A stretch of 63,340 nt of DNA, the filler included, from Chrysochromulina tobinii (taxonomy: Eukaryota), in the NCBI GenBank assembly GCA_001275005.1. It is 8 parts of 8 records of this genome, joined end to end, with 100 filler letters (N's around TTAATTAATTAA, not from the genome) between each part and the next. Parts side by side here need not be neighbours in the genome. Positions count along the whole stretch, not along the records: positions 24,703 to 36,838 come from JWZX01000171.1; 7 more parts are not named here. One strand, 5' to 3'. Positions 801-36,938 of this stretch are shown here, in pieces. The notes below the pieces were generated by a model. The model was given only the letters and a program-made list of their open reading frames with translations. It had not been told where the DNA came from and did not search any database. Numbering within the stretch: position 1 is the stretch's first letter; every line of letters begins with the position of its first letter. Both the position numbers and the translations under genes were made by a program.

Positions 801-1254
801 TGTGGGGTCACGGCGTCATGTGCCACGCCATCCCAATCATCTTCTTGGCGCCGTTCCACGTGATGTCGAGCTTCTTGGGACGCAAAGGCACACCCGTACC
901 CGAGGTGTCATCAATAAAAAGTGCGCCCCACAGTGTTCAAAGCCCCTCTGAGGTAATTACCTGAGTGTAGTGGCGTGGTGCGAAGGTCCCCCGCCCCCTA
1001 GGTCAAAAAAGTGCGCCGCCCTTGGCCCCCTGATGGCTTTTACCCTGGATACGGAGGCACGAGGGGACTTTTACCGATAGCGCATACCGTTTTACGCAAT
1101 TCTTGTACCCTGGACACTTTTACCGTCTTCGGCCAAAAGGCCCTCACTTTTACCCTACCCCCACCCTATGGGTTCGGTTGCAGCCACCCCGGGGCGGCCC
1201 GTGCGCGCCGGACCGTGCGGCAAGTCTGTTCATCCGCGATTTCACAGGTATGTT

Positions 1255-2515
1255 CCCAAATGAGCTCCCGTCGCATCCAAGTGCACGCCGATGTGCAGAA
1301 GCGGTATACGCCGCTCGTGTCGTGCACCGGGCGCAGCGCGGCTAGAGCAGGTTGAGGAACGCCTCACCGCTCTTCTTGTAGTTGTTGATCGCGACCGCGC
1401 CAAAGGGAATGGACGTTCGTCGCGACGGAGGCGACCTCGGTCTCAGGGCGCTGCAGGAAGCGGCAGATGCGCCCATTCGCCTCCCCCCTTTCGAGTAGCC
1501 CGTGCACTTGCAGAAGGCCTGGTTGACGTAAACAAGCTCTACGCCTCGGCGATGCGCATGTCTGCGATGCCGATTGCGAGGGGCAGTGTCTCGACGGCGG
1601 CCGCGATTGCTTGTAGCCACATGGCCGCGTCGGCTGGCACAGCGTACGCGGTACGTGTCCCAGCCAAGGGGGTTCGAGGTGCCAAAGGCGCGCTCCTTGC
1701 CTAGCTTCACCTTGTGAACAAGCGAATCGCTCGGTACTCGGAGAGCAGGAACCCGGGCAGGAACGAGAGCACGAGTGAGCGCACCGCTTGGTCGTTCAGC
1801 GCCCTGAGCTCCTCTTCGACCTCGTTTGGGGTAGCTGCTGGCTTTGCGTGAGAGGATTGGTTGAGGTCATGCCCTGCAGGTGCACCGCCGCGATGCGTGC
1901 GACGGCGCCCGCGCGCAACTGCGCAGTCTCGCTCTCATTGAGCTACGCAGTCTCGCTCTCGTTGAGCTCGTGCATCTGCACGACGACGAAGCTGAGCAGC
2001 TCTACTGCGGCCTCTGAGCGCTGCTTGAGGTGCTCACGGAAAGACGCCACGCTCGGTGCGTGCCCCACGAGCGTCTGCACCGACGCCAACCGACGCCTTA
2101 GCGTCTGCACCGACGCCTTTGCGTCTGCACCGACGCCTTTACGTCTTCGAGCCACATCATCTTGCGCAGCCGTCGCTGCCGATCCACCATCTCGGGGATC
2201 GGCTCCGAGATGTTCACCTCCCTTGATAGCCGGCTCTGCTTCGCGATACTCTCCAAGGGTCTCAGCGCGGACGGCTCGGGTGCCACCGACTCCTCGATCG
2301 GCACGGTCGCGGACGCCCATGGTAAGGGCTGCAGCCTCCGGGGCGAAGGAGCTCGGCAGCAGTCGGCACAGCCCCCCGTATTTCTCGCACTGCGGTTTCC
2401 GAGAGAGCAGCAGCACCAGCACGTCGGCGAGCACGCCGATGGAGTCGCGGTACACGCTGTCGGTGTCGTGCACCGGCTGCACCGAGAGCATGTTGCGGAA
2501 GCTGTGCCAGCTACG
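1255..2515 (-). pseudogene. Frameshifted multi-LOV photoreceptor (LOV C-terminus, RGS-like segment, complete LOV domain)
   Basis: Stitching minus-strand frames gives LPLAIGIADMRIAEA / ELVYVNQAFCKCTGYSK / EANGRICRFLQRPETE (GRICRFLQ at 1451-1474; LOV consensus GRNCRFLQG) / INNYKKSGEAFLNLL* / LRPVHDTSGVYRFC / IGVHLD. An upstream second LOV end FRNMLSVQPVHDTDSVYRDSIGVLADV lies at ~2420-2500. Several frameshifts and stops. Confidence 0.85.
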
Positions 2516-2559
2516 CGGCCATAGGTCATAATAATTTACAGAACTTTTCCGTGTATTAA

Positions 2560-2877
2560 CTATCCCTGCGCCTCGTCATCGTCCTCGCCATCGCTCTCAT
2601 TACCCGCCCACCCCATGGGCGTGAGTTCCGCGTTCACCACGCGGTGCGAGCGTCCATCATCGAAACGCACTTCGCAATTGGGAATCCGGTGTTCCCCGGT
2701 GTTCCCACGAGTCACCACGCCGTGACACACAGTCGCAGCACCGTCGTGCACGAGGACGCAGCTGACTCGCTGCCCTAAATGAAATTCAAGAACTTCTTCG
2801 AAACAGTCAATTATGGTTTTGTCTAACATCATATTGTAATCTTTTGACAAGTCATGCGTGACTCCGCAAGTATACAT
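2560..2877 (-). CDS. Small hypothetical ORF, possible SH3-like beta-barrel with acidic tail
   Basis: 105-aa ORF in lower-GC DNA; GQRVSC..HGVVTRG..CEVRFDDG pattern; no clear homology. Confidence 0.25.
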   Translation of the reverse strand: MYTCGVTHDLSKDYNMMLDKTIIDCFEEVLEFHLGQRVSCVLVHDGAATVCHGVVTRGNTGEHRIPNCEVRFDDGRSHRVVNAELTPMGWAGNESDGEDDDEAQG

Positions 2878-14848: not shown

Positions 14849-15116
14849 ACAATCTCGTGTTGGTTGCAGAGTGCGAGCGAGCGAAGGGTTGCCCAAAAGG
14901 CAAACTCCGACGACAAACTCATTATGTTTCGTCAGTCTGCAATCTGGATGTCCAGGTCTTAAATAACTGCGAACAAACAAGGACTTGTTTGCGGACGCCT
15001 CGAGGAGAGGCGGGTGGCACTATCGGCACGCGTAAGTTGGTTGGTGCAAAACATCATCCAAAAACGGAATTCGGCATACGCGAAAACCCGCGCTCCGTGT
15101 CAACCTGTCAGAGTCG

Positions 15117-16016
15117 ATGTCACGCGATGAGGCCTATGTCGATCTCGATGCCTTGTGCGAGATGCTGAGTATGCATGCCTGTTGCTCACGCCTCTCTGCC
15201 TGCGATGTACTCACACTTGTCTCTTCCTCCTCCGTAGAATGCAGCTGGCCCGATGGCGAGTCGGGATCATCCATCTCCACCGATGCGTCGCCACTCGCCT
15301 CGGACGCAACAGAAGAGATGCCACTTGACCATCCGGAGCTGACACCGGTTGTCGTCGAATTCACGACACACGAGCCGCAAGTGTCGATCCCCATTCTTGC
15401 CTCTACCGTTGTACAACCTGGTCGCGTGCTCGCTCCAGTCAAGCAAGATCCGAGGGTGCTCGTGCCGCCCGAAACTCGCCTCGTGCTTGCGGTTCACAAG
15501 TGCGAGGAGGAAGAGGAGGAAGAGGAGGAGGAGGAGGAGGAGCACGAAGACGATCAGACTGGAGAGACCGGCTCATGGCTGCTCAAGCAGGGCGCACAAA
15601 AAGGAGGGCCCTCGAAGCCGCAGTTCAAGGATGAGGCGATGCGTGTGCTCTACGAGTGCGAGCAGATGCTGCTGCAGGGGAAGGGTGGCGCCCTCTCGAA
15701 TCGCGATCGAGTCCTGAAGGATATCGCACAGCTTAAGCGGCGCTACAGCCGAAGCACAAGTGCGAGCGCACCTTCACGCTCCTCGATCATGCGTCAGCGT
15801 CGCTACTCGCTCGGCATCGACGCTCGCCGTGTGCTCAAGACGTGGGTTGAGGACCACCTCGAAGATCCATACCCCAGCGTCCAAGACAAGCAGCAGCTGG
15901 GCGCCGCCACGCAACTCACCATGAAGCAGATCAACGACTGGTTCACAAACTACCGCAAGCGTCACTGGGCAGACGAGATGGACTCGATGATGGCCGTGCA
16001 CGATGACGAGCAGTGA
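15117..16016 (+). CDS. TALE-class (KN) homeodomain transcription factor
   Basis: RRVLKTWVEDHLEDPYPSVQDKQQL...QINDWFTNYRKRHW with PYP loop; poly-E tract. Confidence 0.92.
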   Translation: MSRDEAYVDLDALCEMLSMHACCSRLSACDVLTLVSSSSVECSWPDGESGSSISTDASPLASDATEEMPLDHPELTPVVVEFTTHEPQVSIPILASTVVQPGRVLAPVKQDPRVLVPPETRLVLAVHKCEEEEEEEEEEEEEHEDDQTGETGSWLLKQGAQKGGPSKPQFKDEAMRVLYECEQMLLQGKGGALSNRDRVLKDIAQLKRRYSRSTSASAPSRSSIMRQRRYSLGIDARRVLKTWVEDHLEDPYPSVQDKQQLGAATQLTMKQINDWFTNYRKRHWADEMDSMMAVHDDEQ

Positions 16017-16564: not shown

Positions 16565-18367
16565 TCAATCGAGATATTCGTGCTGGACGCGCTTGCGTGC
16601 CCCGCCGCCCTTGCCGCCGCGGCCGCGGCCGCCCTCACGGCCGCCGGCCACGACGGCTGCCGTCGCGGGCGTGCTAAGAACGTAGCCGCTGCCACCGCCT
16701 CTTCCGCCCCCCCTTCCGCCGCCACCCCCCTTGCCGCCGCCCTTGCCGCCGCCCTTGCCGCTGCTGCCGCCCTCGTCGCCAGCGAAGCCAGCCCAATTCG
16801 ATTTGGGTGGGTTGGGGTAGTCCACGCCGATCGTCACGCCGCACCGCTGCTGCTCGTCGCGCGAGAGCGTCCATGGCTCGTGGATCTTGGCCGCCGGTAC
16901 CTCCTTGAGCTCTGGCAGCCAGTGGCGCACATACGCACCGTCCGCGTCGTAGTCCTTGCTCTGCTTCACGATGTTGAACCGGTTGACGCGCCCGCCCGTC
17001 ACGCCCGCCGCCGAGGCCCAATTTCCCCAATTCGAGGCCACGTCATAGTCGAGTAGCGTCTCTTCGAACCATGACGCGCCCGTGCGCCAATCGAGCGCGA
17101 GATCGAGCGCGAGATACGATGCGACATTCTGGCGACCGCGATTGGACATGAAGCCGGTGGCGGCGAGCTCGCGCATGTTCGCGTCGACGAGCGGCACGCC
17201 CAGCCGCCCCTCCTTCCATCTCTGCAGCAGCTCAGGGTTTGAGACCCATTTTGAGCGCACGCGCGCCGGCCCTTCTATATGAAAGATCGCGTCGCCGTGC
17301 TTCGCGGCGTAGAGGCGGAAGAAATCTCGCCAGAGGAGCTCAAAGACGAGCCAGTAGGTCGACTTGTTCTTCACGCGCTGCTTCTCGTACTTGGCGCACT
17401 CGGCTGCCACGAGCCGCGGCGAAAGGCACCCGTGCGCGAGCCAAGGGGCAAACTTGCTCGAGTAGTCTGCGCCGAGCATGCCGTTACGCGTCTCAAAGTA
17501 GGTGCCGAGGCAGTCGGCGTCCCAAATGTAGTGCTGGAGACGCGCGAGGGCGGCACGCTCGCCGCCCGGGAAGGGCATCGCGCCGCGCGGGTCGGGAGTC
17601 GCGGCGCTCGTCACCTCCTCCGAACTGAATCCCAGCGCGCTGAGCGACGGCATCGAGTCGAAGCCGGCGCCGCCGACAGCGGCCGCAGCGGCAGCAGTAG
17701 CCACCGCGCCGGCGTTGGCGGGCAGCGGGAGCGAGCCGGGCTTGGGCGATGCGAGAGGTGGAGGGATTACGAGTTTCGCCTCGACCTTTGTGCGGAACGG
17801 CGTGAACACGTCCGGCATTGATGCGTAATCGTCGCCGAACATTGTCTTCAAATTCTCGTCGTCGTACATCGTGCCCGAGAAGATGGTGCGGAGCGCCGGC
17901 GCGGACGCGGATCCATGCGCCTTTTTGAGTGCGCTCACAACCGCACGGTCGACGCGCAGCTCTTCGGAGGTGAGCTGCTGCTGGGTGACAAATGTTGTGG
18001 GTCCGGCGCTCGCTGGCTGCACGAGTGTAGGCAGCAGTTCCTCTGGCTTGCCCACGGCGACGAGAAGGTCGGAGCCGCATGCGCGGAGCGAAGAGCGCAG
18101 GTCGGCGACCGATTCGCACATGAACTTGGCACGGAGCACGCCCGTCTTCGCGCAGCCGAAGCTGTGCGGCGCGTCCTTGGCAAAGTGGCGCGGGTCAAAG
18201 CAGTAGACGGGCACAATCTCCTTAGCGCCGGGCAGCGCAGCGATCTTGTGGAGGACCGGGTTGTCATGCATACGCAGGTCGGAGCGAAACCATACGACGA
18301 AGCGCGGACGCGACGAGGTGAGCGCTGCGGTGGCCGCGGTAAGCGTCGCAGCCGCGGCGACCGACAT
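16565..18367 (-). CDS. CRYD: Cryptochrome DASH (photolyase/cryptochrome family) with G/RGG-rich tail
   Basis: WFRSDLRMHDN, YFETRNGMLGADYSSKFAPWLAHGCLSPR, STYWLVFELLWRDFF, TGFMSNRGRQNVAS, LLDYDVASNWGNW. Confidence 0.96.
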   Translation of the reverse strand: MSVAAAATLTAATAALTSSRPRFVVWFRSDLRMHDNPVLHKIAALPGAKEIVPVYCFDPRHFAKDAPHSFGCAKTGVLRAKFMCESVADLRSSLRACGSDLLVAVGKPEELLPTLVQPASAGPTTFVTQQQLTSEELRVDRAVVSALKKAHGSASAPALRTIFSGTMYDDENLKTMFGDDYASMPDVFTPFRTKVEAKLVIPPPLASPKPGSLPLPANAGAVATAAAAAAVGGAGFDSMPSLSALGFSSEEVTSAATPDPRGAMPFPGGERAALARLQHYIWDADCLGTYFETRNGMLGADYSSKFAPWLAHGCLSPRLVAAECAKYEKQRVKNKSTYWLVFELLWRDFFRLYAAKHGDAIFHIEGPARVRSKWVSNPELLQRWKEGRLGVPLVDANMRELAATGFMSNRGRQNVASYLALDLALDWRTGASWFEETLLDYDVASNWGNWASAAGVTGGRVNRFNIVKQSKDYDADGAYVRHWLPELKEVPAAKIHEPWTLSRDEQQRCGVTIGVDYPNPPKSNWAGFAGDEGGSSGKGGGKGGGKGGGGGRGGGRGGGSGYVLSTPATAAVVAGGREGGRGRGGKGGGARKRVQHEYLD

Positions 18368-18618
18368 GTGGACTGCCGAGAATTTCTCGGCAACTTCTAT
18401 GAAATTGACCGAGAGGCAACACCCCAACGCGTGATTCCACAAATCACGCTCGCCAGAGCGAATCGCTGCAATTTGTTGGGTGACTCGTGACCTCAACTCG
18501 GCTGCTTTAGAAATTGCATCTTTTCTCTAAAAAGGATCCGATCCACAACTTGCCATCTTTTGGATCCACTCCGCGCGACCGAGACGTGCTTGGGAGGGCT
18601 CGACGGATTTTCGGGTGC

Positions 18619-20660: not shown

Positions 20661-21648
20661 GAAACGGCGGGGCCATCACCATCGCGTGCAGCATCGCCAC
20701 CGCCGTCGGCGCCGCTGGCGATTGCGACGGGTGCGACGGTTGCAGCGCTGGCGCCGGCGCCCGTCCCGAACAAAACCATCTGGCTGGCTTTCTTCCATGG
20801 GCACAAGGGATGGCGAGCCTGACGCCCCTCATCTCCCCACATGGACTTAACATGGACTGCATTCCATATACGTGCGCAAGGGATGGCGTGCCTGACTAAA
20901 TTCATGTGCAGATGTGCTTCCGATGGTAGCCATCCCCGAGCCACCCCCCAATGTCATCTCAGCAAGACGGGAATCTGTTCCTGATCTCATCACTATGAAA
21001 GTCGAAAAGCGGCGGCCGTGGAAGTTCGTCACTACGACCTGGGAAGTGGAAACAGAATGGGATATAGGGTAGGCGGTAGGCTTGGCTTGCCTTGGCACTT
21101 TGTGCTGAGCCGCGGAGCGCGCGCGGTTCCGGTTGGCTGTGCTTCGCGCGTGCCGTGAGTGTGAGAGCGCTGCGAACGTGCAGGCGCGGTAAGAGTATCA
21201 CGTAGGTTCGACACGGGGGACCTCGTTACCTACCCGCTGACTGACTCCGGGACCGCGTGACCTCTCTCCTCTACACTGATTCGACTTTCAAGCTTTGACG
21301 ATTTGTCTCGTCATGTCACTGATTTAGAGGGTCACAGGAAGGCGACCACGGCGCCAGGTCGTGACTGTGAAGGACGGTGAGCGCGGGGGACCGCGAACGA
21401 AACTCAATTGTCCGCGACAAGTGGTGCCTACCCATTGACGAAACTCGCTGACTGAGAGGAGTGAGTGCGTGTCTCTGCCCAAGATGTGGCTCGTCCTTAT
21501 GAGGGGAGCGGAGCCGTCCGTCGAGACGGTGGTGGAGTGAGCGTGGGGGGACCGCGAAGAAACTGAAACTGAGAAACTGATCTTTCGGGAAAGTGCCGTG
21601 GAGCTTGTGAGAGAAAAAGGGTTCACACGTGTCAGCCCGGCTACAAAG

Positions 21649-22749
21649 ATGGCGAGTGGACGACGCATTTCGCTGGTCGCGCAGCTCCGGCCACGTTCGG
21701 CGGCAGTGCGGCCTTCGCTGGGCTTGACGCTGCAGCGTGCCGATGAGACCGCTGCGAGTCTGTCGCTGCCGCCCGTCGAGAGTCCTGAGCGCAGCCGCGC
21801 CTTGACATGCTGCATCATCGGCCCCACCAACGCAGGCAAGTCAACGCTGCTCAATACACTAATCAATGCACGTGTATCGGCCGTGTCGGCCAAGATCCAC
21901 ACGACGCGCGAGAATACGCTTGGATATCTGACGGACTTGCCGTCCAGAACGCAGGTTGAGTTCGTGGACGCGCCGGGAGCGCTCGGGCCCGATGTTCCAT
22001 CGCTTCACCGTGCTTTGTGGGACGCGGTGCGCGGCGCGCAGCTCGCGCTCGTGGTGGTGGACGCTGCGGACGTGCCGTCGCACCGGCAAGTTGGCCGCTT
22101 CCTCGACCGGCTCGCACGCGAGCTCGACGAGCTCGAGGCGGCCGAGGGTCCTGAGCGCCGGCCGCTGACGGCGCTCGTGCTCAACAAGGTCGACATTGTG
22201 AACAAGAAGGAGCGGCTGCTGAAGGCGAGCGCGGCACTTCACGGGGAATTCGCCTTTGACGGGCCCCCATTCATGGTCTCGGCGCACACGGGCGACGGCG
22301 TCGATCACTTGCGCGGCTGGCTGCTGCTGCAGGCTAAGCCGCGCCAGTGGACCATGGCGGCGGGCGTGACACACGTGCAGCCGCCGCTCACGCGTGCGAC
22401 GGAGATCATCCGCGAGGCGCTATTCACGTACCTGGACCGCGAGCTGCCGTACGTCCTCGAGCAGCGCAATCTCGGCTGGACCGAGCTCACCAACCCTACG
22501 CAAGGCCTCCGAATCGACCAGCAGCTTCTCATCCCGCGAGAGCGCAAGTCAGTTCGAAAGATCCTTGAGGCCAGGCTTCCCGGGATCGCCACGTCCGCGC
22601 GTCGGCAGCTGCGCGCCGAGTTTGGACGGCCCGTGTTCCTGCATCTCTCGATCGGCGTCGCCTCCAACGTCTTCGAGCTCGAGAGCGCCCGCCCGCACGA
22701 TGTGCTGCAGATGTTGGCAGATAGGGGGCCGGATGCTCGTGAGACATGA
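21649..22749 (+). CDS. era: Era-like GTPase (organellar ribosome assembly)
   Basis: G1 GPTNAGKST, G2 HTTR, G3 DAPG, G4 NKVD, EIIRE..ELPY, degenerate KH domain. Confidence 0.92.
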   Translation: MASGRRISLVAQLRPRSAAVRPSLGLTLQRADETAASLSLPPVESPERSRALTCCIIGPTNAGKSTLLNTLINARVSAVSAKIHTTRENTLGYLTDLPSRTQVEFVDAPGALGPDVPSLHRALWDAVRGAQLALVVVDAADVPSHRQVGRFLDRLARELDELEAAEGPERRPLTALVLNKVDIVNKKERLLKASAALHGEFAFDGPPFMVSAHTGDGVDHLRGWLLLQAKPRQWTMAAGVTHVQPPLTRATEIIREALFTYLDRELPYVLEQRNLGWTELTNPTQGLRIDQQLLIPRERKSVRKILEARLPGIATSARRQLRAEFGRPVFLHLSIGVASNVFELESARPHDVLQMLADRGPDARET

Positions 22750-24602: not shown

Positions 24603-24973
24603 NNNNNNNNNNNNNNNNNNNNNNNNNNNNNNNNNNNNNNNNNNNNTTAATTAATTAANNNNNNNNNNNNNNNNNNNNNNNNNNNNNNNNNNNNNNNNNN
24701 NNGAGTTTTTACAGTCACAGGTGCTACAAGTTGCGAGGAGCTGTGAGAATGAAACTCACAGCCGCTCGAACTTGAGGAGCTGTGAGAAAAAAATTCACAG
24801 CTGCTCACTTGGTGGAAAACACCGTTAACCCGCAGGGACGGGATGAAGAGCCCGCAACGACGCGTTTTCGAGCTGCGTTCTCTTGCAACGCGCTCATAAA
24901 AATAAAGGCCACACGCAGCGCATGCCTACCTACTGTGCGCGCGCGCGCGCGCGCCTGTCCCTCACAGTGTGTC

Positions 24974-26218
24974 TCACCCTCCTATGGTCGTCATTGGACG
25001 GTTCTTCGTGGCGGCGATCTGGTGCATGCCCGCATGCGCTGCGTGCTTGCGTTGGAGCGCGCCACCCACGAGCTCGAGCAGCTCCGCGTCCGTCGCGCCT
25101 TCGCGCATCGCGTCGCGAAGCGAGACCTCGCGGCTCCCGAAGAGGCATACCTTGAGGCTCCCGTCGGCGGTGAGCCGGAGCCGGTTGCATCCGGAGCAGA
25201 ACGGCTGCGTCATCGAGGCGATGAACGAGACCGAGCCGGCCGAATCGGGCAGCTTCCAGGAGACGGCCACGTCATTCGGGGGCGACGGCTGCTTCGAGAG
25301 CTCAGGGTGCGCCTCCCGCAGCCGCAGGAGCATCTCCTCGAGTGAAACCATACTCTCGTGCTTCCACTTGTTGCCGTCGAAGGGCATGTACTCGATGAAG
25401 CGCACGTCGATCGGGCGCGCGCGAGAGAGCTCTGCGAACGCAAGCAGCTCGTCGTCGTTGATCCCCGCCATCACGACGCAGTTGAGCTTGAGTGGCGTGA
25501 GTCCGATCTGGAGCGCGAGATCGATCGCCTCGAGCACACGCGCGAGCCCATCGCGGCGCGCGATCTGCACGAATCGAGCGCGGTCGAGCGTGTCGAGCGA
25601 CACGTTGAGACGGTCGAGCCCATTGAGCACGAGCGTTGGCAGCATGCGCGGCAGCGCTATGCCATTGCTCGTGAGCGCAATCTGGCGCAGCCCGCGCGGA
25701 CGCAGCTCGTTCAACGAGCTCACGATCTCAGGCAGGTCGCGCCGCACCGTCGGCTCGCCGCCTGTCAGGCGGATTTTGTTGACGCCCGCGTCGACAAGGA
25801 GCGAAGCGATCCGCATCATCTCCTCAGTGCGGAGCAGCCGCGAGTCGGGCGTCAGGTCCACGCCACCCTCGGGCATGCAGTAGACGCAGCGGAGCGAGCA
25901 GCGCTCCGTCAGCGAGATGCGCAGGTATGTGTGGCGCCGACTGAAGCGATCGGAGAGCGCCGGGTCGACGGATGTAGAGGCTTCAGCCGCGGGAACACCA
26001 TGCTGCCGCCGTAGCTCGGCGGCAGCGCGCACGGCGGAATGGTCGGAGCGCCCGGCGGAGTGGTCTGCATCGACGGGCCGTGGCGAACCAGCGACGAAGT
26101 CCTGAGGCGACGGGGCCTCCTCGGCGAGGCGGCTCCGCAACAGCCGCGCACGTGCAGAGGTGGACGCGGAGGCAGAGGTGGAGAGGAAGCGCGAGGCACA
26201 AAGGCGTCTCGCCCCCAT
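24974..26218 (-). CDS. MOCS1: GTP 3',8-cyclase (MoaA/MOCS1A/CNX2), molybdenum cofactor biosynthesis radical SAM enzyme, with mitochondrial-type presequence
   Basis: YLRISLTERCSLRCVYCMP (CxxxCxxC), IRLTGGEP, NVSLDTL, RFIEYMPF, FCSGCNRLRLTADG..VCLF, C-terminal NRPMTTIGG. Confidence 0.97.
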   Translation of the reverse strand: MGARRLCASRFLSTSASASTSARARLLRSRLAEEAPSPQDFVAGSPRPVDADHSAGRSDHSAVRAAAELRRQHGVPAAEASTSVDPALSDRFSRRHTYLRISLTERCSLRCVYCMPEGGVDLTPDSRLLRTEEMMRIASLLVDAGVNKIRLTGGEPTVRRDLPEIVSSLNELRPRGLRQIALTSNGIALPRMLPTLVLNGLDRLNVSLDTLDRARFVQIARRDGLARVLEAIDLALQIGLTPLKLNCVVMAGINDDELLAFAELSRARPIDVRFIEYMPFDGNKWKHESMVSLEEMLLRLREAHPELSKQPSPPNDVAVSWKLPDSAGSVSFIASMTQPFCSGCNRLRLTADGSLKVCLFGSREVSLRDAMREGATDAELLELVGGALQRKHAAHAGMHQIAATKNRPMTTIGG

Positions 26219-26313
26219 TCGGGCAGTGTATGTGAAGCGTACGTTCACACTGGATTACAGTCAGTTCAGAGCACGCCAACATATTCCGTGCAGTTCTACA
26301 CAAGTGCTACTGT

Positions 26314-27716
26314 ATGCTTCTCTCGATCCGGGAGCGCGGCCGCCGAAACAGGTCAACAAGTGTACAAAACAAGCCCAACATGCAGCCCATTAGAAGTCTT
26401 GGCGGCACACCACAGGTGCCCCTCAGCTACACCTTCGGCTTTGGCCGTCGCCTCCTCTACACTGCAACAAGCTCGCCACGTGGCGTGCTCAGGCTTCGCG
26501 ATCAACTCGACGCTGCGGTGATAGGCCAGAAACCACTCAAAGAGTGCCTCGTGCTGGCTCTCATCGCCAAGGAACACGTTTACGTTGAAGGTCCACCAGG
26601 AGCCGCCAAGACCCTGCTTGCTGAGACAGCTTCCGCAACCGCGGGGCTCAGCGCCTTCTTTTGTCAGCTGCATCGCGATACGCGCCTCTCCGAGCTTGTG
26701 GGCGATGCCGTCATCCGTCGTGAGCAACGACCCACTGGAGAGCTGATCCGTTCAGAGGTTGAAGCAGGCGGGCTCCTCACCGCCGAGGTTGCGGTTCTCG
26801 ATGACATCAGCCGTGCTCCCGGAGAGGCACTCAACGTCTTGTTGAGGCTTCTCAACGAGCGGCGGTGGCACGCCAAGCCCATTCCACTTCTCACAGCGAT
26901 CGCCACCGGCAACCCGACGAGTGCGACGTATTACAACGAGCCGCTCGGTAAGTCGCCAGGCTAAGTGATGAGCCCTGCCATGGCCGAGTGGCGCACTCTG
27001 TCATGCCATCATCCCAACGAGCTGAGACCTCGGCGTGCTCACCTCACAGATCCAGCGACGCTCGACCGCTTTGCCTTCCAATTGAGATGTGACGGGCTGC
27101 TTGGCTTGGGTCGATGGGAGGATGCCGCGAGCGTCATCGACCGCTTTACAACCGAAGCCGCACCTCGAGAGCAGGGCACTCATGGAGATAGTGATGAGCG
27201 AGAGCGCTCTCTGTGCGCCACGGAGCTCGCACAGTTGCAAACCGCCGTGGAGCGCGTGCGCTTTCCGCCCGAGGTGCGTGACGGCATCATCCGCTTCATC
27301 GTGCAGCTGATCGCGCGACATAAGCTCGATGCGAGTAACTCGTGCATTTCGGACCGGACGTTCCTCGTCAAGGCGCCCAAGCTCCTGCGTGCGTGCGCCG
27401 TGGCCGCTGGCCGAGACGAATGCATGCCCGAGGACCTGAGAGTGCTGCAGCACATGATGACTTTCCGGCTGCCCGAGCATGTGGAGTCGGAGCAGGTGCT
27501 CGCCTTGCTAGAGGAAGTGGTGGAGGAGGCGCGCCATGCAGCCGCGCGTCGGGCTGGTACGGCAAAGGAGAGCGTGAAGGGAGACCACAGTGGCGGCACA
27601 CGTGGTGGTGATGATGGTGGTGAGCAGAGCACTGGACAGAGTCCGCCCGCCGAAGATGGGGGAGCCGCAGTGATGCCTGCGCAGCAGCAGCAGCAGCAGC
27701 AGCAGGAGCAGCAGCA

Positions 27717-27768
<52 letters not shown>

Positions 27769-28899
27769 CAGCAGCGGCAGCGGCAGCAGCAGGAGCAGCA
27801 ATCTTCGACAGAGGAAAGGCCAGGTACCGGTAGCAGTGCCACCTTAGCCGATGCGACCGCCGCCGAGCTGGCCACGCTAGCGACCGTGTCTCCGTCGCAA
27901 CGCAGCGCAGGTGCTGCCGGCACGCCGCGGCCCCGCCCACCCCCCTCAGCTGACACGATCAACTCCAACCCCGAGACTGTGCAGGGGCTCGAGCGCCTCC
28001 TCGAGGGGCTCGATGGCCAATTTGAGCGTTCGAGTGCGGTGTCCCGCGCCTCCTCGCAATCCGACGGCGCCCCTCGTGGCTGGCGGCGGCTGCGCTCGTT
28101 TGCGGACTTTGCAGCCGATACGGACGGCGTGGATGCGGCCACCTGGTGTTCCGCCCCAGGCGCAGCGACGGAGCCACGGGCTATTGACCGTTCGAAGCCA
28201 CGCAGCAACGGAGCGCTCGCCATCTTGCGTGACGTGTCGACCTCTATGCACGGCCTGAATGCGAAATGGGCTTCGTCACTCACGCTGCGCGTGGTGGAGC
28301 TTGCTCGGCGGCGCAAGATGCACGTCGGCTTGATTGAGTACTCCGACACGGTCACCAAGCTGCACCCCCCCGCGGGCTTCTTTTCACAAGACTACGGCCG
28401 GCTCGCCGCCTTTGCCCGCCGGCTCGAATGCCAAGGGCTCACCGACTATGAAGCCTCGATCTCCGGTGCGCTGCGTGAGTTCCAGGGAGATCGGCGGCTG
28501 AGCGCCCCAAACACGCCGAAGCACATCCTCTTCGTCACCGACGGAGCGCCGACCAAAGGCGACAGGCGTTGCCGCATGGCGCGCGAGATGGCCGGGCGTG
28601 CGGGCGTGCGCATCCACACCCTCTTCTTGCAGTCGGGTCCGTACGACCGTTACCCGCCGGTGCTCAACGATCTCGCGAACGACTCGGGTGGCCTTCGCAT
28701 GCAGGCGAGGGTTCTTGATCACGACCGTGGCCACATTGATCTGAGGGTCCTGGCCGAGGGGGAGAACGGCACTGAGCGACCTGAGCTTTTCGCGGTGAGC
28801 GCTCGGTCAGGGGGTATGCTGCGAAGCTCACAGCGCGCGCAGAGCGAACAGTCAGCGTTGCCGAAGCGGCCCGCTGAGCCGAGGCGCCTGATCCCTTGA
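26314..28899 (+). CDS. MoxR/RavA-like AAA+ ATPase fused via a poly-Q linker to a VWA (MIDAS) domain; intron 26948-27049; start at 26314 or 26380
   Basis: EHVYVEGPPGAAKT, LLTAEVAVLDDISRA..LNVLLRLLNER, spliced EPLDPATLDRF, ISDRT; VWA with DVSTSM, GLTDY and LFVTDG. Confidence 0.88.
27681..27800 (+). repeat. (CAG)n poly-glutamine tract within the AAA-VWA linker
   Basis: Read directly. Confidence 0.95.
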
Positions 28900-29677
28900 T
28901 TGTAGCGGAGCTGATACAGGTGAACTACAGGTGACACACGCTACAGGGGAACATCGTGAACGCCAACGGCCCAACGGCGCCGCGGCGCGCACGGCACTCG
29001 GCGGAGAGTCCGCAGAGAGTCCGCAGAGAGTCTGCAGAGAGACGAGAACGGAGCCCCCGCTCGGTTGCCGCCCGGGCGCGCACACCGACCGCGCCGCCGC
29101 GCCGGGGTTCGGTATCGGCGCCCCGCGTCCGTCCGCGGCGTTGGACGAGTCCGGGTCTGGGTGTCGCGCTCGGAGACGGACCGTGCGACCGTGCGCTCCG
29201 TCGTCCGACGTGTGGCCGCACCCCCGGGCGGGGCCCGCGTGGCATCAAGTTTTTCGCGTTTTCGCGGCAGCGTGCCACCGCGCCCCGGACCATGCCCTAC
29301 CCAGCAGCCAGGGCCCACCCACGATCTCCAGTGATCTCGACACGACGACGGCCACGCGGTGGCTCAAGCCTCCGTACCCGCGCGCCCGGCGTCGGAAAAG
29401 GTCACGGACGCTCGCTACTGCCTACTCGGATCTCCCGCCATCTCGCGGCGCCATGTGCCATCTCCGGCATCTGTCAGTGTTGGCCGGGGTCCGAAATAAG
29501 CAAACTTTTCCGTGAAGCGATAAGCAGCCCGGCCCTCCAACACATATTAATGTATCACAAGCGCGCGTACGCCCTCGTCCGCGACCTTCGCCCCACAGAC
29601 TCACCTGAGGGACACACCTACTATACGAACCCCGGCCGCGGCCGCCTGCTGTGCCACAGACTTCGGAGAACAACAGC

Positions 29678-30337
<660 letters not shown>

Positions 30338-30849
30338 TCAATCGAGGCGAAACATGCGCGCGTCAGCACCGGCAGAGGGGTACGGCGCGAATCGGCCGGG
30401 GCTTGACGGGAGCGAGCTGGGCGTTGCGGGCCCCGCGTGCGAGCGCGCCCCCGCGAGCCGATGGGCCGGTGGCGTTGCGGCGCAAGAAGGCGCGCGCCGC
30501 ACTGTCGGGTGCGACTCACTTGATCCTTGGATGCGATCCAATGCTGACGCCATCAGTGCTGCTAAGAAAGCGGAAATGAATTTCCCGTTTCGGTGTGGAA
30601 GCACACAGGAGTTCGAACAGTGGCCAACGATGCCTATCTTCGGCGACGCTTTTCGGCCGAGTCTCGTAGACACTAGAAACGGCCCCACGATATCGGCGGG
30701 GACAACTCTTCACACCACGACAAAAAGACCCGAGTTACACGTGTGAAGACTTTCTCGAGGGAGAAGAGAGCCCTTCCGTCGTGGCACCGCTGAGCACCAG
30801 ACGCTCAGGTGACTAGCGTCGGTAGAGCGCTCTGGGCGACGGCCCAGCC

Positions 30850-31605
30850 ATGCTCTTCGCGGACAAGCGCGCCCTGCGCACCGATCTCAAGTTGCAGCTC
30901 CTCGAGATCCGCGAAAAGGAGCTCAGTTTCTACACAACCAACACGCTCTCAATTGGCACACAGGCGGCACTCTTTGCCGGTTTCTCCTCGACCGCGCTCA
31001 TGACCGAGGTGGACAAATCGTATCAAGTGCTGCACACCCTGTTCCTCCTTTCCACCATCTTGGGGCTCGCGTCTTGCCTGTCCACCGTCGTGAGCACAAG
31101 TCTACTAGTAATGGTTGCGCCTGGTCTGGCACTCCGCGGCCCTGACGGCTCGATGAGCGTAGCGGTCGACAATATGATCGACGAGTACCGCCGAGCGTTC
31201 CGGGGCGTGCTCTTCGGCATCATGATGTTTCACATCTCGACCATATGTTACGCGTGGCTGACGTTCTGGTGGCCCTTGGCGGCGGTTCTATCCATCGGCG
31301 TCAGCGGCTCGCTCTATTGCATCATCAGGTACATCCGAGTCCTAATGAGGCGCTTTGCCCTGCCCGCCGAGGCCGTGGTGACCGGCAAGTTTGAGGGCAA
31401 CGAGGCGCAACGCGCGGGACAAGCGGCGGGCCTGAAGAACCGCGGAGAGATCTCGACGCTCTCAACACTCATCCAGGAAGAGAGCAGAGGGCGCGGCATC
31501 GGCCTCGACGGCGCGCCGCTCGCTCCAGAGCTACAGAGGGGGCTGCCGCGAGAGGTGGACCGCGGTGGCAGGCATCTTGGAGTGCAGCGGCTGGGTAGAT
31601 CGTAG
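30850..31605 (+). CDS. Four-TM membrane protein (LALRGPDGSM family; TM1 faintly Orai-like)
   Basis: Clean ATG ORF; hydrophobic segments QAALFAGFS, LFLLSTILGL, LFGIMMF and WWPLAAVL. Confidence 0.7.
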   Translation: MLFADKRALRTDLKLQLLEIREKELSFYTTNTLSIGTQAALFAGFSSTALMTEVDKSYQVLHTLFLLSTILGLASCLSTVVSTSLLVMVAPGLALRGPDGSMSVAVDNMIDEYRRAFRGVLFGIMMFHISTICYAWLTFWWPLAAVLSIGVSGSLYCIIRYIRVLMRRFALPAEAVVTGKFEGNEAQRAGQAAGLKNRGEISTLSTLIQEESRGRGIGLDGAPLAPELQRGLPREVDRGGRHLGVQRLGRS

Positions 31606-31898
31606 AGTACCATGTAGGCCGTCGCAGCATAGCGTGAGAGTCACACGGAGACAGTCCCAGTCAGACCTCTCAGGACTGAGATTGAAGGGGACACTGACTG
31701 TGATGTGTGAAAGTCTGACAGTCACAGTCAGGTCGAGCGCGCCGCCGCCGCCAGCGTTGAGCGTATCGACGACAATTCGCCACACATCAGCTATCCTAAA
31801 CAATTTACAATTACTCAAATCTCAAGAGGTGGAGATTTGTGTCGCGGCGGTGGGGGGAGGACACGGGGATGTGTACAGGGTATGTGTCCCGTGTGTGT

Positions 31899-31930
31899 GT
31901 CCCGGCTCCCCCCGGTGTCTTTTTACCGGT
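31899..31930 (+). repeat. 32-bp dispersed motif gtcccggctccccccggtgtctttttaccggt (copy 1 of 3)
   Basis: Identical at 49446-49477 (-) and 52741-52772 (+). Confidence 0.9.
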
Positions 31931-31997
31931 TACCGGTATGTTTCTTGACATGACATGACGCGCTTGACTTTTGCGCCCCGCCCGGCCCCGGGCGAAC

Positions 31998-33158
31998 ATG
32001 GCGTCGGTGGCAATCGAGATCCTGAGCGACGAAGAGGATCTGGCCGCGCCTCCCCCGACTGCTTCCGCGCCGCCAGGGCACATCAGCCGCCGCCGCCGCC
32101 TGCGTGAGGAGTCTGCTTCATCTTCCTCGGCCGCCGGCGGCGGCGGTGCCTCGACTGCCATCGACCTTGATGACGACGACGAGCTCGTGGCGCTGCCGCC
32201 GCCGCCACCCCGTGTGGCCTCGGGCCGTGCCGACGAGCCGGTTGCCCTCGAGGACGATGATCCGGCCGAGCGGGCTGCGCAACGCCGCAAGTATGAGGCG
32301 GCTGCGTGTAAGATATGCGAAGCAGCCGTGCTGCGCATGGCGTACAAGCTTCACGGGTGTGGCCACAGCTTTTGCCGCACGTGCATCGCCGAGTACGTCG
32401 AGCGCAAGCTGCGCCGTCACCTTGCAAGCGAGGTTGCGTGCCCCACGTGTGCCAAGGCATTGGCCATCCTCGATGTGCAGACGCTCAGCGCAGACGGCAA
32501 AGACACTCGGCCGCGCACGGTGCATCATGCCGATTCGATAGTGCTGCCCCCCGGTCTGCCACCGCACGTGGCGGCCGCGTTCCTGCAGCGGCACGGAGGC
32601 GCCGCCGGTGGAAGCAGGAGCGGCGGCGGTGGCGGTATGGACGGTATGGGCGGGCCGCCGCGCGCCACGGGCAGCGCCGCAGCGACCAAGCGACTGATGC
32701 GAGAGTTCCAGGCGATCCAGAAGGCGAACACGTCGCAGCACGGCTTCGACGTCGAGCTGCCCGACGAGACCGATATGTACACGTGGGACGCCACCTTTTT
32801 TGGCTTCGAGAAGGGCACCCCTCTTGCAAAGGATCTCGAGCGATCTCCGGGCAAGCGGATCTTGCTGCGCATCGCCTTCCCGTCGACGTATCCAGCCGCG
32901 CCGCCCTACATTCGCGTCATCCGGCCGCGCTTCCAGTTCCGCACCGGCCACGTGACCATCGGCGGCTCCATCTGCACCGAGATGCTCACCTCGGCGGGCT
33001 GGCAGCCGACGATGACCATCGAGTCGGCGCTGCTCTCGATCCGCACCAACATGCTCGTTGGCGGCGCGCGGCTAGACCTCAGCCAGCGCAGCGACTACTC
33101 AGAGCTCGAGGCGCGCGAGGCCTTCAATAGGATGGTGCGCGAGCACGGCTGGTTCTGA
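31998..33158 (+). CDS. RING finger + UBE2Q-type ubiquitin-conjugating (E2) fusion with N-terminal SIM-like motifs
   Basis: CKIC..CGHSFCRTC..CPTC; KRLMREF, FPSTYPAAPPYIRVIRPRF..GHVTIGGSICTEMLT..GWQP; IEILSDEED, AIDLDDDDE, VALEDDD. Confidence 0.9.
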   Translation: MASVAIEILSDEEDLAAPPPTASAPPGHISRRRRLREESASSSSAAGGGGASTAIDLDDDDELVALPPPPPRVASGRADEPVALEDDDPAERAAQRRKYEAAACKICEAAVLRMAYKLHGCGHSFCRTCIAEYVERKLRRHLASEVACPTCAKALAILDVQTLSADGKDTRPRTVHHADSIVLPPGLPPHVAAAFLQRHGGAAGGSRSGGGGGMDGMGGPPRATGSAAATKRLMREFQAIQKANTSQHGFDVELPDETDMYTWDATFFGFEKGTPLAKDLERSPGKRILLRIAFPSTYPAAPPYIRVIRPRFQFRTGHVTIGGSICTEMLTSAGWQPTMTIESALLSIRTNMLVGGARLDLSQRSDYSELEAREAFNRMVREHGWF

Positions 33159-33560
33159 AAGTTGGCTGTGAGAGGGGCTTGGATAGGGCTTGGGCGCTTG
33201 GGCGCAGGTTATGCGCTGAAACGTGAAAGCCCCGAACCACGACCGTCGACGCAACGCGGGCTCTGTGGCCGCTCGCCGCTCCGATCGCCCGCACCCCGCT
33301 CGTACGACGCGCTCCGCGCCCCCCCCCCCCCGCCCGCCTGTGACTTCGGTTGATCCGATCGTCATCGTGTTACAGCCGGGCGGCGGTGTGTAGTCGTTGA
33401 TCCGTGGTTGCGTGTTGTCAGTTGTGGTGTGAACGGGTGTAAGCGCTCAACACGATAAGAACACGACATGTGACAGCCACCGAGACTCGTCTGTGTTACG
33501 TCCGTGTCTGATCCGTGACCAGCTCGGCCGCGGGGAGCTCTAACACGTCTAAGGCTTCCT

Positions 33561-34655
33561 TCACCGGAGATGAACGGAACACTCGGGGGGCACGTTGGGG
33601 CCATCGTCATCGGAGAGGGGCTCGTCTTTGCCGCCCACAAAGTCAAAATGGTCGAGGACCTGCTCGAGAACCATGGCACCGCAGGATGCTTGGACCACCG
33701 GCCTCTGAAGCTCCGCCGCGAGCAGTCCTTCCCACTCGTCAGCATCCAGCGCGTTCCCCCAGTGGCATACGGCGATCAGATTCTGAGTGGTGCTGCAACG
33801 CACGCTGTACACGCTGTCGAAGCGCTGGCACAGGAGCCGCAGCACTCCCCGCGCAATGTAGTAGTCGGGGTCGTCCGGGTCGTCAGGCGGTCCGGTGTGC
33901 ACGTTGATCATCAGAAGCCCAGCTTTCGAGAGGCAGCCTGCAGCGGCGTCGAGGGTCGGATTCTTACGTGCACTCGGCGACAATCCCTCTGCATCGAAGA
34001 CGTCGAGCAAGATGACGTCATAGCGGCCATCATCAGCAGTACCCACAGCCGCTTCAGCAGCGCCGGCAGCCTCGGTAGCAACAGCAGCCTCCGCATCGGC
34101 ACCGAACCCGTCAGCGTCGTCAACTGCATCGGCACCTTGCTTAGCACCTTCTGCGAGGAGCCATCGATGACGGCTTTTGAGGAACGTCGCGCACTCGCCC
34201 GCTTCGGCGGTGCATCGCGGTTCGCTCAACTCCAGGCCAAAGTACGTGGCAGCTGCCGTGATCACCTCGGGCTCGAGCTCCACCGAGTGTACCCGGCCAG
34301 CAGGCGGGAGTGCGGATGCCAGGACACGTGCGATCGAGCCGCCACCAAGGCCGAGAAGCAGCACACGCGGAGCATCTGACGTGGTGGATGTGCCACGTGC
34401 GGCCCACCCAAGCGTTAGGACACTCATGATGCGCACCAGCTCCAGCGGTTGTGCTGGCGAGAGTGACCCATCGGCAAGCACCAATGCGTCTGATTGGCAA
34501 TGGCCGTCGAGGTAGAGCGTTCGCACGCCGCGCTCCTCTTCAACAGACACCATGACTCCGGTGCCCGAGCTCGGCGTCTTCATGAGAACCTTGACGTCCG
34601 GCGTGCCAGCGTAGCCCTCCGCGACCGTCGGCGATGCGCCGTAGCGAGTGGACAT
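33561..34655 (-). CDS. Spermidine-synthase-like SAM-dependent methyltransferase
   Basis: VRTLYLDGHCQS, VLLLGLGGGSI, VELEPEVITAAATYFGL, YDVILLDVFD, GLLMINV. Confidence 0.85.
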   Translation of the reverse strand: MSTRYGASPTVAEGYAGTPDVKVLMKTPSSGTGVMVSVEEERGVRTLYLDGHCQSDALVLADGSLSPAQPLELVRIMSVLTLGWAARGTSTTSDAPRVLLLGLGGGSIARVLASALPPAGRVHSVELEPEVITAAATYFGLELSEPRCTAEAGECATFLKSRHRWLLAEGAKQGADAVDDADGFGADAEAAVATEAAGAAEAAVGTADDGRYDVILLDVFDAEGLSPSARKNPTLDAAAGCLSKAGLLMINVHTGPPDDPDDPDYYIARGVLRLLCQRFDSVYSVRCSTTQNLIAVCHWGNALDADEWEGLLAAELQRPVVQASCGAMVLEQVLDHFDFVGGKDEPLSDDDGPNVPPECSVHLR

Positions 34656-34785
34656 TAGTGCGAAAAGCAGACGCTGCCTGTGAACCTTTGGCTGTGAAAA
34701 ACAAGGTGGCAAGGTGGGCCGACACAACCTGCTATACACAGGCCGTTAATCGGCAGAATGTGGAGGCGAGGCAACCACTTCACCT

Positions 34786-34936
34786 CGAAAGAGTACGCCA
34801 CCGCTGCTTCTGCTGTCAACACAACGCGCAAGACCTCCGCTGCTGCTGCTGTTCAACACAACGCGCACGACCTCCGGACCCCCAAGCACGAGGGCCTCTA
34901 TCGCTATGGACGGAGGTGTGGCCAACACAACCTGCT
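34786..34936 (-). repeat. Detached copy (~1.5 units) of the 94-bp monomer found upstream of ORF 37177
   Basis: Reverse complement of ggccacacctccgtccatagcgatagaggccctcgtgcttgggggtccggagg...gttgaacagcagcag. Confidence 0.85.
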
Positions 34937-35588
34937 ATTACACAGCGCGTAAGTCGGCGGCACGGGGGGAGGCCCTGGGGGAGGCGCGCAGCCTCCCCGT
35001 CCCCCTCTAGAGTAAACCAATCAAGGATGAAACCAATAGTACGGATCGGGCCGCTGTTCGCAGCGGCAACTGCCGCGGCGGCGCGCACGCGCGCGCGCCG
35101 CGGTGTCGTCTCCCCTTGGAGCAGTAGTATAACCTGACGCACATGCACCGCGCGTGGCACCCCTAGTTCATGCGGGCTTCTGCGCCCGCGCCGCGATCAC
35201 GGCCGTGCGCCTTACGCGCGCTTAGTGCGCCCGAAGGCACGCACCATGCAGCCACGCACCCTCTCCGAGACATCTTATGCGCGTCCTGTCGGCGCCTCGC
35301 CTATTACTCGCCTACAGGTTACCGCCTATACCGGTTACCGCGTTCGACGTTCGAGCACTGTGTGTGGGGGTGATCCGACGCGTACGCCCCCCTCCTCCAC
35401 AGCTCCACTCTGGCCCCTACGACATCGAATTGAAATTCTCGCCCGCCTCGATCGCCCGCCGGACCGCCTCGCCGGGCGGTCAGTCAACTCGCTGACCAGT
35501 GACCTCGACGATGTGCGCGTGTTCAAATGGTCTACGCATTTGAACTACGGCTTACCTTTCAATTGCGTTTTCAGTTGTTTTCAATGTA

Positions 35589-36543
35589 CTACGCACGCGC
35601 TCTGCAACCGCTTTCATTGAAAATCGGCAGAGCAAGCTTCGAGTCGTACATGAACGAGTCGTCGTCCTCCTCGACATAACGCGTGGTCGAGCATGTTGGA
35701 GAACGGAGTTTCTTCCCTACACGGTTCATGAGAGCGGCCGCAGCACGGCACTTTGGCAAGGCATCGCACGGCATCGGGCGGCCTTCTTTCTGCTCAACAA
35801 ATTGACGATGCCACTCGAGGGCGAGCAGGTTGATGCTGCGGTCTCGGGGCCCGCAAACCAGCCCCATGTCGAGCATGCGCCCAACAATGTCGAACTCTGC
35901 TGCTTCGACATCGAGCTTCATCAGCACCGTCGGTGACGTAGGGGCCGACGAAGATGGGATGCGCCGCTCCAGAATGTGGTATCGTATCCACCACGCGAGG
36001 TCAATGGCAGCAACCTCGTTGCGCCGTCTGCTTCCTCCAGCTCCTGCCGTGTTGTAGTAACGAGGCGGCCCACTCCTGCCGACGTATATTGACGGGGTCG
36101 TCATAGAAGGGCAGCGTGGAATTAATCGCGGCGGCAGCTGTCTCAGTGAAGATTTTGGCGCGCCAGCCTCGTGCCTTGTAGCACGTCTCGAGAGATCGCA
36201 GCCGCGGCGAGTGATGCACGTTCGCTTCGAATGCGAATGAGCACGTGTGCTGCTGTCGATTCTCGCCCAGCATGGAGTCGAAGGCACCTGTCCATGAGAA
36301 ACTGTGACCGGGAGTGCGAGTGCCAGCCAACGGGTAGGCTTGCGGCTCAAAGAGCTTGCGCGTCTGCACGCCGATATTTGCGCCTACGTCGAGGAAGACG
36401 TGAAGGCAGCCATCACCCCAATGACTGCCTGGCGAAGGCCCTTCCAGGGCGAGCTGCAGTGATGCAGCAGCTGATATTGGTACTGTACAGTATACCATTA
36501 TCGCCACGAGAGCGCACAGTGCGGCGGCGCGCCCATTTGCCAT
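35589..36543 (-). CDS. FkbM-family (Methyltransf_21-like) methyltransferase with signal peptide; one frameshift near 36020-36040
   Basis: CLHVFLDVGANIGVQTRKLFEP, FAFEAN, then in another frame IDLAWWI..VLMKLDVEAAEF..LALEWH. Confidence 0.8.
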
Positions 36544-36938
36544 GAGGGAGTCCGCGTGCGTCCCGTGTGATAAACGCCGAGGGGTGAAATGACCAGACCG
36601 CCTGGAGTACAGTCTGTGAAACGCTAGACGCGGGCCTTCCACCCAAGAAACGTGTACGCGAACTCACACACCGAGTGCGGCTCATGCCCTAACCGTGCCC
36701 GTGTAGCAAGGAGAGCGCATGACGACGGACGCACGCTGACACTCGTACTCTACGCTGCATACGAGCCATACAGCTTGACAACCTTGGTGGGCAGCGCGGG
36801 CCAGAGCTCGTCGACCGCCGCCAGAGAGCGACCATGCCNNNNNNNNNNNNNNNNNNNNNNNNNNNNNNNNNNNNNNNNNNNNTTAATTAATTAANNNNNN
36901 NNNNNNNNNNNNNNNNNNNNNNNNNNNNNNNNNNNNNN

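Follow-up and report, generated by a model that had tools for sequence, protein, structure and literature searches.

A spliced AAA+-VWA protein of Chrysochromulina tobinii belongs to an unnamed MoxR-clade family and is predicted to be imported into mitochondria

RavA/ViaA and the RavA-like pairs are the nearest named relatives of both halves of the protein described here, and RavA/ViaA have been linked to complex I and fumarate reductase in the accounts of PMC10743472 and PMC7159879. The best mechanistic model is provided by NorQ/NorD and CbbQ/CbbO, described as a hexamer with one VWA, a finger in the pore and a strained linker; the NorQ/NorD ring, with one VWA per hexamer, twists the VWA finger against a second anchor (PMC9976466, PMC13036017). 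The VWA of CobST is described as likewise placed at the pore (bioRxiv 10.64898/2026.10.09.757910). ChlI/ChlD share the order AAA-linker-VWA, and VWA8, reported to be mitochondrial (PMC10743472), and midasin/Rea1 are eukaryotic proteins with AAA+ and MIDAS in a single chain.

The window, i.e. the whole stretch of DNA analysed, is 63,340 nucleotides long and strings several contigs together with N spacers between them. Its contig part at 24703-36838 carries a gene consisting of exon 1, a 102-nt intron and exon 2. The features are as follows, residue numbers being counted here and below from the ATG at 26314:

24974..26218, minus strand: moaA/CNX2 (GTP 3',8-cyclase), divergent, with its own Arg-rich N-terminus; TIGR02666 360 bits against a cut-off of 284
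26380..26947, plus strand: coding part of exon 1 from the likely start (presequence plus the bulk of the large AAA+ subdomain); Pfam bpMoxR 8e-17, AAA_5 4e-16
26380..26481, plus strand: predicted mitochondrial presequence, 34 aa, 4 Arg/Lys, no acid, no hydrophobic stretch (by composition only)
26590..26613, plus strand: Walker A GPPGAAKT; Lys kept in 136/136 family rows
26797..26808, plus strand: Walker B LDDI, with Asp at the catalytic-Glu position
26948..27049, plus strand: spliceosomal intron of 102 nt, GTAAGT...CAG (GT..AG), within the AAA module, with an in-frame stop inside
27050..27531, plus strand: exon 2, first part, with Arg finger (LDRF), helical lid and sensor 2 (ISDR); Pfam AAA_lid_8 6e-07
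27532..27957, plus strand: low-complexity linker of about 145 aa, Gly-rich at its start, with a poly-Q whose length varies between strains; A runs at the junction no longer than 3
27958..28209, plus strand: helix and two-strand element preceding the VWA core, predicted pore-entering "finger" (VWA-region model; putative function)
28210..28755, plus strand: VWA domain with complete MIDAS (D606, S608, S610, T676, D709); Pfam VWA_2 7e-10
28756..28899, plus strand: unconserved C-terminal tail and stop

RNA contigs in two of four runs (X1 and X2) skip exactly the intron at 26948-27049, and an identical intron was present in 7/7 close-strain loci. The original prediction had the AAA and VWA parts joined by a spliceosomal intron; the intron is real, but it sits inside the AAA module and not between the domains. 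Unspliced RNA contigs, which may be DNA, were also seen. In the poly-A run X2 a 1269-nt contig covers 26404-27672 and a second one 27865-29032; they break at the poly-Q repeat, and among the four runs no contig bridges AAA and VWA. The RNA evidence consists of contigs, which lose rare forms. Exon 2 alone is a single frame from the Arg finger through the end of the VWA, and the relatives P0004, P0005, P0006 and P0010 are intronless single-ORF AAA-VWA fusions. The gene, which is spliced and represented in RNA libraries, codes for a single AAA+-linker-VWA chain, as had been proposed for one AAA module and an intact VWA.

The reading frame is 827 aa long from the ATG at 26314 and 805 aa long from that at 26380. 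The former is absent from five of six close-strain loci compared (L081-L085) while the latter (start MQPIR) is common to all seven sequences compared, so the true start is probably 26380 and the protein 805 aa in length. Indels between the two ATGs were found in run X15. The start bears on the claim of a basic, acid-free N-terminus: read from 26314 it contains one Glu, while from 26380 there is no acid and there are 4 Arg/Lys in 34 aa.

All of the motifs originally listed (GPPGAAKT, LDDI, LDRF, ISDR and a MIDAS VWA) were located, the Arg finger LDRF at 27067 and the sensor-2 Arg of ISDR at 27355. Pfam bpMoxR, AAA_5, AAA_3 and AAA_lid_8 scored above their cut-offs, which is the pattern of a MoxR-type AAA+ module with its helix-2 insert region and lid, and the best Foldseek matches of the relative P0004 were 2r44 and RavA. 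The linker had a pLDDT below 50 in the model of P0004. In the window clade it measures 111-145 residues, versus 63-76 in five of the six bacterial fusions measured and 121 in the sixth. Its Q/E tract spans 27682-27801. The poly-Q, once regarded as a feature of the linker, varies from 24 to 40 residues across six close-strain loci and is missing in other family members (longest run 1-4 Q); a functional role for it in the linker is not supported. Each of the MIDAS residues, together with the invariant C672 and H703, was present in 43/43 rows, as were G551, P553, D568 and W577 of the pre-VWA element. Comparison of the VWA fold gave Z 19.2, rmsd 2.2 and 168 aligned residues.

Searches made separately with the AAA half and the VWA half recovered one and the same set of proteins. 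The eukaryote-type fusions are 777-799 aa in length, and one cluster of them includes a Chrysochromulina parva protein. Bacterial matches came from Tectomicrobia, Dadabacteria, SAR324 and relatives, with 58-65% identity across exon 1; some are fusions 630-710 aa long, others apparent gene pairs whose products have approximately 320 and 377 aa. In-frame bacterial AAA-VWA fusions are thus common, and the fusion is not the eukaryotic novelty for which it was taken. In a tree of 94 rows, in which long-branch joins were flagged among the outgroups, the 77 family rows formed one clade (99/97), separate from the RavA-like, MoxR proper, ChlD, CoxD and CbbQ/NorQ rows. In a further tree the window gene and the C. 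parva cluster formed a clade of their own (100/99). Besides this clade membership, the window protein carries the family markers: the LDDISR Walker B, HRD/NEPLDP, the GxPRxW finger and the CxGxT loop. Based on these sequence characters, the gene is a member of an unnamed MoxR-clade AAA+-VWA family known from Dadabacteria, Tectomicrobia, SAR324 and Myxococcota. Neither the family nor its eukaryotic members were found in the literature searched, which lay outside subscription journals and supplements; the supplements and database on chlD frameshifts could include some of the genes.

RavA was the best NCBIfam match for the ATPase, which has a RavA-type lid domain and PDB profile matches of 1e-15. 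The window exons scored 30.6 and 19.3 bits and relatives 31-67 bits against PRK13531 (cut-off 681 bits over 498 positions), and the NCBIfam scores of both were in general far below family cut-offs. The VWA half was, by VWA profile, nearest to the partners of RavA-like ATPases. In contrast to RavA, there is no LARA domain match, the Walker B is of the Asp-Asp (DD) type, ATPase and VWA are in one gene, and the RavA-like rows (100/97) fall outside the family clade, a placement to which the long-branch warnings apply. The protein differs from NorQ/NorD in its distant ATPase subfamily, in the AAA module which replaces the N-terminal anchor of the adaptor, and in having no client gene adjoining. Against VWA8 and midasin, the trees containing no rows of either, it is set apart by architecture: one AAA module in approximately 805 aa versus several, which agrees with the earlier separation from VWA8. 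Over exon 1 it is, moreover, 60-65% identical to bacterial proteins. The ternary conflict system of MoxR, VWA and beta-propeller (Pfam bpMoxR), defined as a beta-propeller fused to VWA plus a third locus component (PMC7159879), was considered and rejected: the protein carries no propeller, and no third gene is conserved at the loci.

A metal-chelatase medium subunit of the ChlD/CobT type has the same domain order. Furthermore, an Atlas feature search with a bacterial member led to chelatase-type clusters at 0.95-0.96, TIGR02442 matches the relative P0079 at 4e-11, and the slip-site logic described below resembles that of fs-chlD. Yet P0079 reaches only 29 of 500 and 42 of 779 bits (TIGR02031 and TIGR02442 cut-offs), and neither model matched the window exons. 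CobN/ChlH scored above cut-off in 3/31 bacterial host genomes (possibly incomplete), so that most family hosts are without a large subunit; the VWA profile gave 6e-14 to 6e-4 for RavA-like partners and 0.2 for ChlD; the ChlD rows lie outside the family clade; and the bacterial genes, unlike the Mg/Co chelatases, are without a consistent 3' hairpin. The cut-off, tree, large-subunit and VWA-profile tests refute membership, and a chelatase subunit is the most improbable of the readings considered. The original distinction from ChlD is in agreement with the tree and with the missed chelatase cut-offs. The window protein belongs neither to RavA nor to ChlD nor, by its architecture, to VWA8; by analogy, it most likely works like NorQ/NorD.

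Compared with the MoxR clade with a VWA co-chaperone, where a catalytic Walker B Glu is expected, the window protein has Asp. This had been presented as a peculiarity of the gene, but it is family-wide: DD was found in 136/136 aligned family rows and Glu (DE) in 17/17 outgroup rows, and among more distant representatives the motif could be recognised in 65, of which 61 had DD, three DE and one DN. DnaA is a known precedent for DD in Walker B, and no published natural DD MoxR protein was found in the literature search. The Walker B Glu has been described as essential for hydrolysis (PMC9976466), so DD may mean that there is no ATPase activity. The entire family would then be an ATP-binding scaffold incapable of hydrolysis, as the replacement of the catalytic Glu throughout would suggest. 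Against this stand the Walker A Lys, Arg finger and sensor 2 conserved in 136/136 family rows and sensor 1 in 134, and the maintenance of free ATPase forms without any other domain. A family-specific Glu (E171), conserved in 134/136 rows, could also assist catalysis. A dead scaffold is held to be quite improbable; with Asp, hydrolysis is likely to be slow or triggered by a partner, not abolished.

The family was found in 251 stretches among 185,579 species genomes, and the layouts of 80 of these 251 loci were surveyed. In 46 of the 80 an A9-11 run precedes a VWA that is read in the -1 frame; 18 are fused in frame, with an A9-12 run and a -1-frame stop 2-16 codons on; 12 are fused without an A run and adjoin an ATPase-only paralog; and four, by the anchor used, are ATPase only. 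All 65 of 65 junction runs consist of pure AAA codons, as against approximately 15% predicted from codon use (the genes are related), and other A/T runs of at least nine number only 15 in 1.19 Mb. No consistent conserved hairpin was found 3' of the run (6/65 with z < -2), a result consistent with polymerase slippage like that of Thermus dnaX. It appears that bacteria produce a free ATPase as well as a fusion, either via a putative poly-A slip site or via a second gene. The bacterial layouts match the two-product scheme that has been put to the test with chelatase genes and with dnaX (PMC3711429, PMC5009743, PMC9227772); the likeness to frameshifted chlD lies in the short and long products which one A-run gene or two genes appear to yield (PMC3711429, PMC9227772).

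The family is present in 105 of 107 Dadabacteria-phylum genomes, including 16 of approximately 1 Mb, and in 10 of 63 SAR324-phylum genomes, each of which (10/10) has both genes. In bacteria that also have a free paralog, the ATPase of the fusion has drifted, its Walker A Pro being Glu in 12 of 15 cases; in the window clade, 5/5 rows keep all 21 ATPase sites checked. No client gene recurs next to the bacterial loci. The recurring neighbours (mltG, proB, gyrA, guaAB, SDR and RNase III) were rejected as a guide to the client, as they track lineage synteny and often lie on the opposite strand. Thirty pattern matches in viral contigs were found, none confirmed as family, and none of 272 plasmid records with a weak match covered 80% of the query.

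In the model of the window VWA region (pLDDT 82.6) the VWA core is preceded by a helix and two strands, a part with a pLDDT of 46-76. Among the 50 structural matches listed, only Rea1-MIDAS (196 aligned residues), MDN1-MIDAS (189) and NorD (168; Z 14.9, rmsd 2.8) align from model residue 1. These finger matches are of modest strength: their Z of 14.9-15.9 falls short of the 16-19 reached by plain VWA domains. The VWA domains of ChlD, CobT and ViaA are not among the 50 matches listed, and their absence there is not evidence.

In the mechanism which we favour, the fused chains would form a six-membered ATPase ring in the mitochondrial matrix, the pore would take the finger of one VWA domain, and the MIDAS site would grip a client protein for the ring to twist. 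The hexamer, the finger in the pore and the single working VWA per ring are drawn by analogy from NorQ/NorD, CobST and ChlI/ChlD. Taken as a whole, with splicing, mitochondrial import, hexamer, one finger in the pore and client remodelling, this reading of the protein is considered rather probable. A pore which holds one finger would explain why bacteria keep a free ATPase beside the fusion.

No poly-A slip site was found in the window clade, and since all of its ATPase motifs are intact the fused chain is probably the motor itself. Alternatively, it may be an adaptor resembling ChlD that hydrolyses ATP weakly or not at all, the motor being a separate free-ATPase gene. The free form is retained by bacteria in every layout seen, and eukaryotic free-ATPase clades exist: ten dinoflagellate-type rows (100/100) and a further clade of L095 with P0434 (support 98). 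However, no free ATPase grouped with the window clade among the 50% representatives (best 150 of 261 at 1e-30) or in earlier searches, and the clade does not have the motif decay of the paired bacterial fusions. A ChlD-like adaptor is regarded as rather unlikely. How a fused motor would be accommodated can be ranked. The intact 21 sites, the missing A run and the longer linker favour a ring in which all six chains are fused and one VWA is engaged, to which we give somewhat short of an even chance. That a free ATPase paralog was missed in the window organism is possible but less so, and the release of a free ATPase by clipping within the linker, for which Caulobacter DnaX is a precedent, is unlikely.

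The client is tentatively placed among core metal-containing respiratory or matrix enzymes that mitochondria have in common with aerobic bacteria of small genome size, and a role in metalloprotein maturation is proposed by analogy. The same motor could instead act on a ribosome assembly intermediate, as midasin/Rea1 does and as has been proposed for VWA8, which co-migrates with mitoribosome intermediates (PMC10743472). The pre-VWA element aligning longest with the Rea1 and MDN1 MIDAS among the 50 matches, and the retention in 1-Mb genomes, would suit such a role in translation. The absence of the family from 53/63 SAR324-phylum genomes, its restriction to the 251 stretches in 185,579 genomes and the lack of a conserved ribosomal neighbour gene speak against it, and a ribosomal client is deemed improbable.

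The moaA gene, whose product is an Fe-S enzyme, lies head to head with the window gene, 161 nt separating the two start codons. With both N-termini presequence-like, the divergent pair could mean that the window protein serves molybdenum-cofactor synthesis. The pairing is present in close strains, but it is absent in 4/4 Chrysochromulina-type loci; moaA is not among the recurring neighbours of the 80 bacterial loci and is present in 6/32 bacterial host genomes, with 0/16 of those of about 1 Mb. Because the pairing is limited to close strains, the link is probably incidental, a shared promoter at most, and a molybdenum-cofactor role is very improbable.

Named eukaryotic sources of the family number six: Chrysochromulina parva, Gymnodinium smaydae, Yihiella yeosuensis, Effrenium voratum, Cladocopium and one MMETSP transcriptome. 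Members from G. smaydae and the MMETSP transcriptome are fused, while those from Y. yeosuensis, E. voratum and Cladocopium are ATPase only; fused and free family genes were not seen within one eukaryotic species among the members found. N-terminal extensions longer than 15 aa were present in 28/32 eukaryote-like versus 6/177 bacterial-type proteins, a count which is not fully independent as most eukaryote-like rows were labelled by eye, partly from these extensions. At least four Arg/Lys and at most two acids were counted in 23/32 (the window gene and 22/31 relatives), and none of the 32 N-termini has a hydrophobic signal stretch. An Arg-rich, acid-poor, non-hydrophobic extension is the pattern of a mitochondrial presequence and not of the bipartite plastid signal of these algae. 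The window protein is predicted, from the composition of its N-terminus, to be imported into the mitochondrial matrix, and the organelle of the original prediction is probably the mitochondrion. What is new is that many protist lineages (those named being a haptophyte and four dinoflagellates) carry the family, with apparent presequences of mitochondrial type.

Monophyly of the eukaryotes was obtained in one tree (74/50) and not recovered in three others; AU tests, at p 0.71 and 0.86, gave no ground for rejecting it. One reduced tree omitted 38/94 rows (distant outgroups, degenerate and near-duplicate), and the 24 representatives newly included in one extended tree were limited to those whose DD-type AAA was complete. 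The eukaryote-like members are diverse, with less than 50% identity, which speaks against a recent transfer into this one lineage as the form of the possible horizontal acquisition that had been suggested; an old presence in eukaryotes is tentatively preferred to a recent single transfer. No Alphaproteobacteria were named among the 80 of 251 loci or the other named matches, which is weak evidence.

In a broader and more doubtful scenario, many protists would carry a second mitochondrial AAA+-VWA chaperone beside VWA8, taken early and once from delta-type bacteria, whose DD site hydrolyses ATP. After loss of the poly-A switch the ratio of motor to adaptor would have been solved variously: by a separate free-ATPase gene in dinoflagellates, by an in-frame linker stop in another clade and, in haptophytes, by a ring made of fusions only.

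Pairs of MoxR and VWA proteins insert metals and remodel complexes; for mitochondria, the literature covered records only VWA8, which is poorly understood. A small version with one module, found in several protist groups and almost throughout the Dadabacteria phylum, even in genomes of 1 Mb, offers a tractable model with few possible clients. The family is in addition a natural test of two questions: can an AAA+ ring work with Asp at the position of the catalytic Glu, and can six VWA domains be accommodated by a ring whose pore has room for one?

Among the bacterial members, the state at the poly-A slip site flips often, judging from near-identical genes (locus L033 versus L063, and L099 versus L102) that are fused in one case and carry a -1 frameshift at the A run in the other. 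Any single case of such a difference may be an assembly error in the homopolymer. Some Entotheonella-type genomes carry two family genes (L127 and L132 in genome G001; also L016), the second being a SAR324-type paired-clade fusion in addition to the slip-site gene, or a tandem copy. In the large Myxococcota-type group (L106, L115, L130; database proteins P0422-P0537), fusions of approximately 600 aa with a decayed ATPase adjoin a free ATPase that is intact. Of the arrangements in the family, this one most resembles ChlD with ChlI.

In the Chrysochromulina gene, the intron contains an in-frame ATG (window 26980-26982), which gene callers have given as the start of truncated database proteins such as P0001; this start is probably a calling artefact. 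Two residues of its VWA domain, numbered from the ATG at 26314, and several other genes of the window are listed below.

Features of the window
28429-28431 (+), Cys672, adjoining the Thr loop of the MIDAS; invariant (43/43 VWA rows)
28522-28524 (+), His703; invariant (43/43 VWA rows)
29715-30320 (-), ARF1-type GTPase with introns, named from sequence alone; downstream of the AAA+-VWA gene and convergent with it
31995-33158 (+), single-frame fusion of a RING finger with a ubiquitin-conjugating domain (domain search)
16568-18526 (-), photolyase/cryptochrome, different contig
15036-16013 (+), TALE-type homeobox, different contig
21541-22746 (+), ribosome-binding GTPase, different contig
56612-57955 (-), kinesin, different contig

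The last four are ordinary eukaryotic genes. Cys672 and His703 possibly form a redox or metal site.

At locus L089, two genes away from a Chrysochromulina-type family member, an FAD monooxygenase domain shares a single open frame (1-2778, minus strand) with an RlmN/Cfr-like radical-SAM methyltransferase; this frame is either a fusion or two genes in frame.

Further members show possible routes to a free ATPase. One eukaryote-like clade (L105, P0258, P0261, P0267, P0268 and P0271 among others; tree support 98/98) consists of proteins, from many independent contigs, which stop 25-30 residues past the ATPase. In L105, the member examined at the DNA level, an in-frame TAG (1284-1286) is followed by 110 open, linker-like codons and is a candidate for stop read-through, which would yield both the free ATPase and a longer form. 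In the other members the early end could instead reflect an intron beginning within a Gln-stop pair. In L109 (1160-1180) the ATPase frame closes with ATG TAA directly past the domain, and the same letters can be read as a GTAAG splice donor; retention of an intron at this putative donor would produce a free ATPase.
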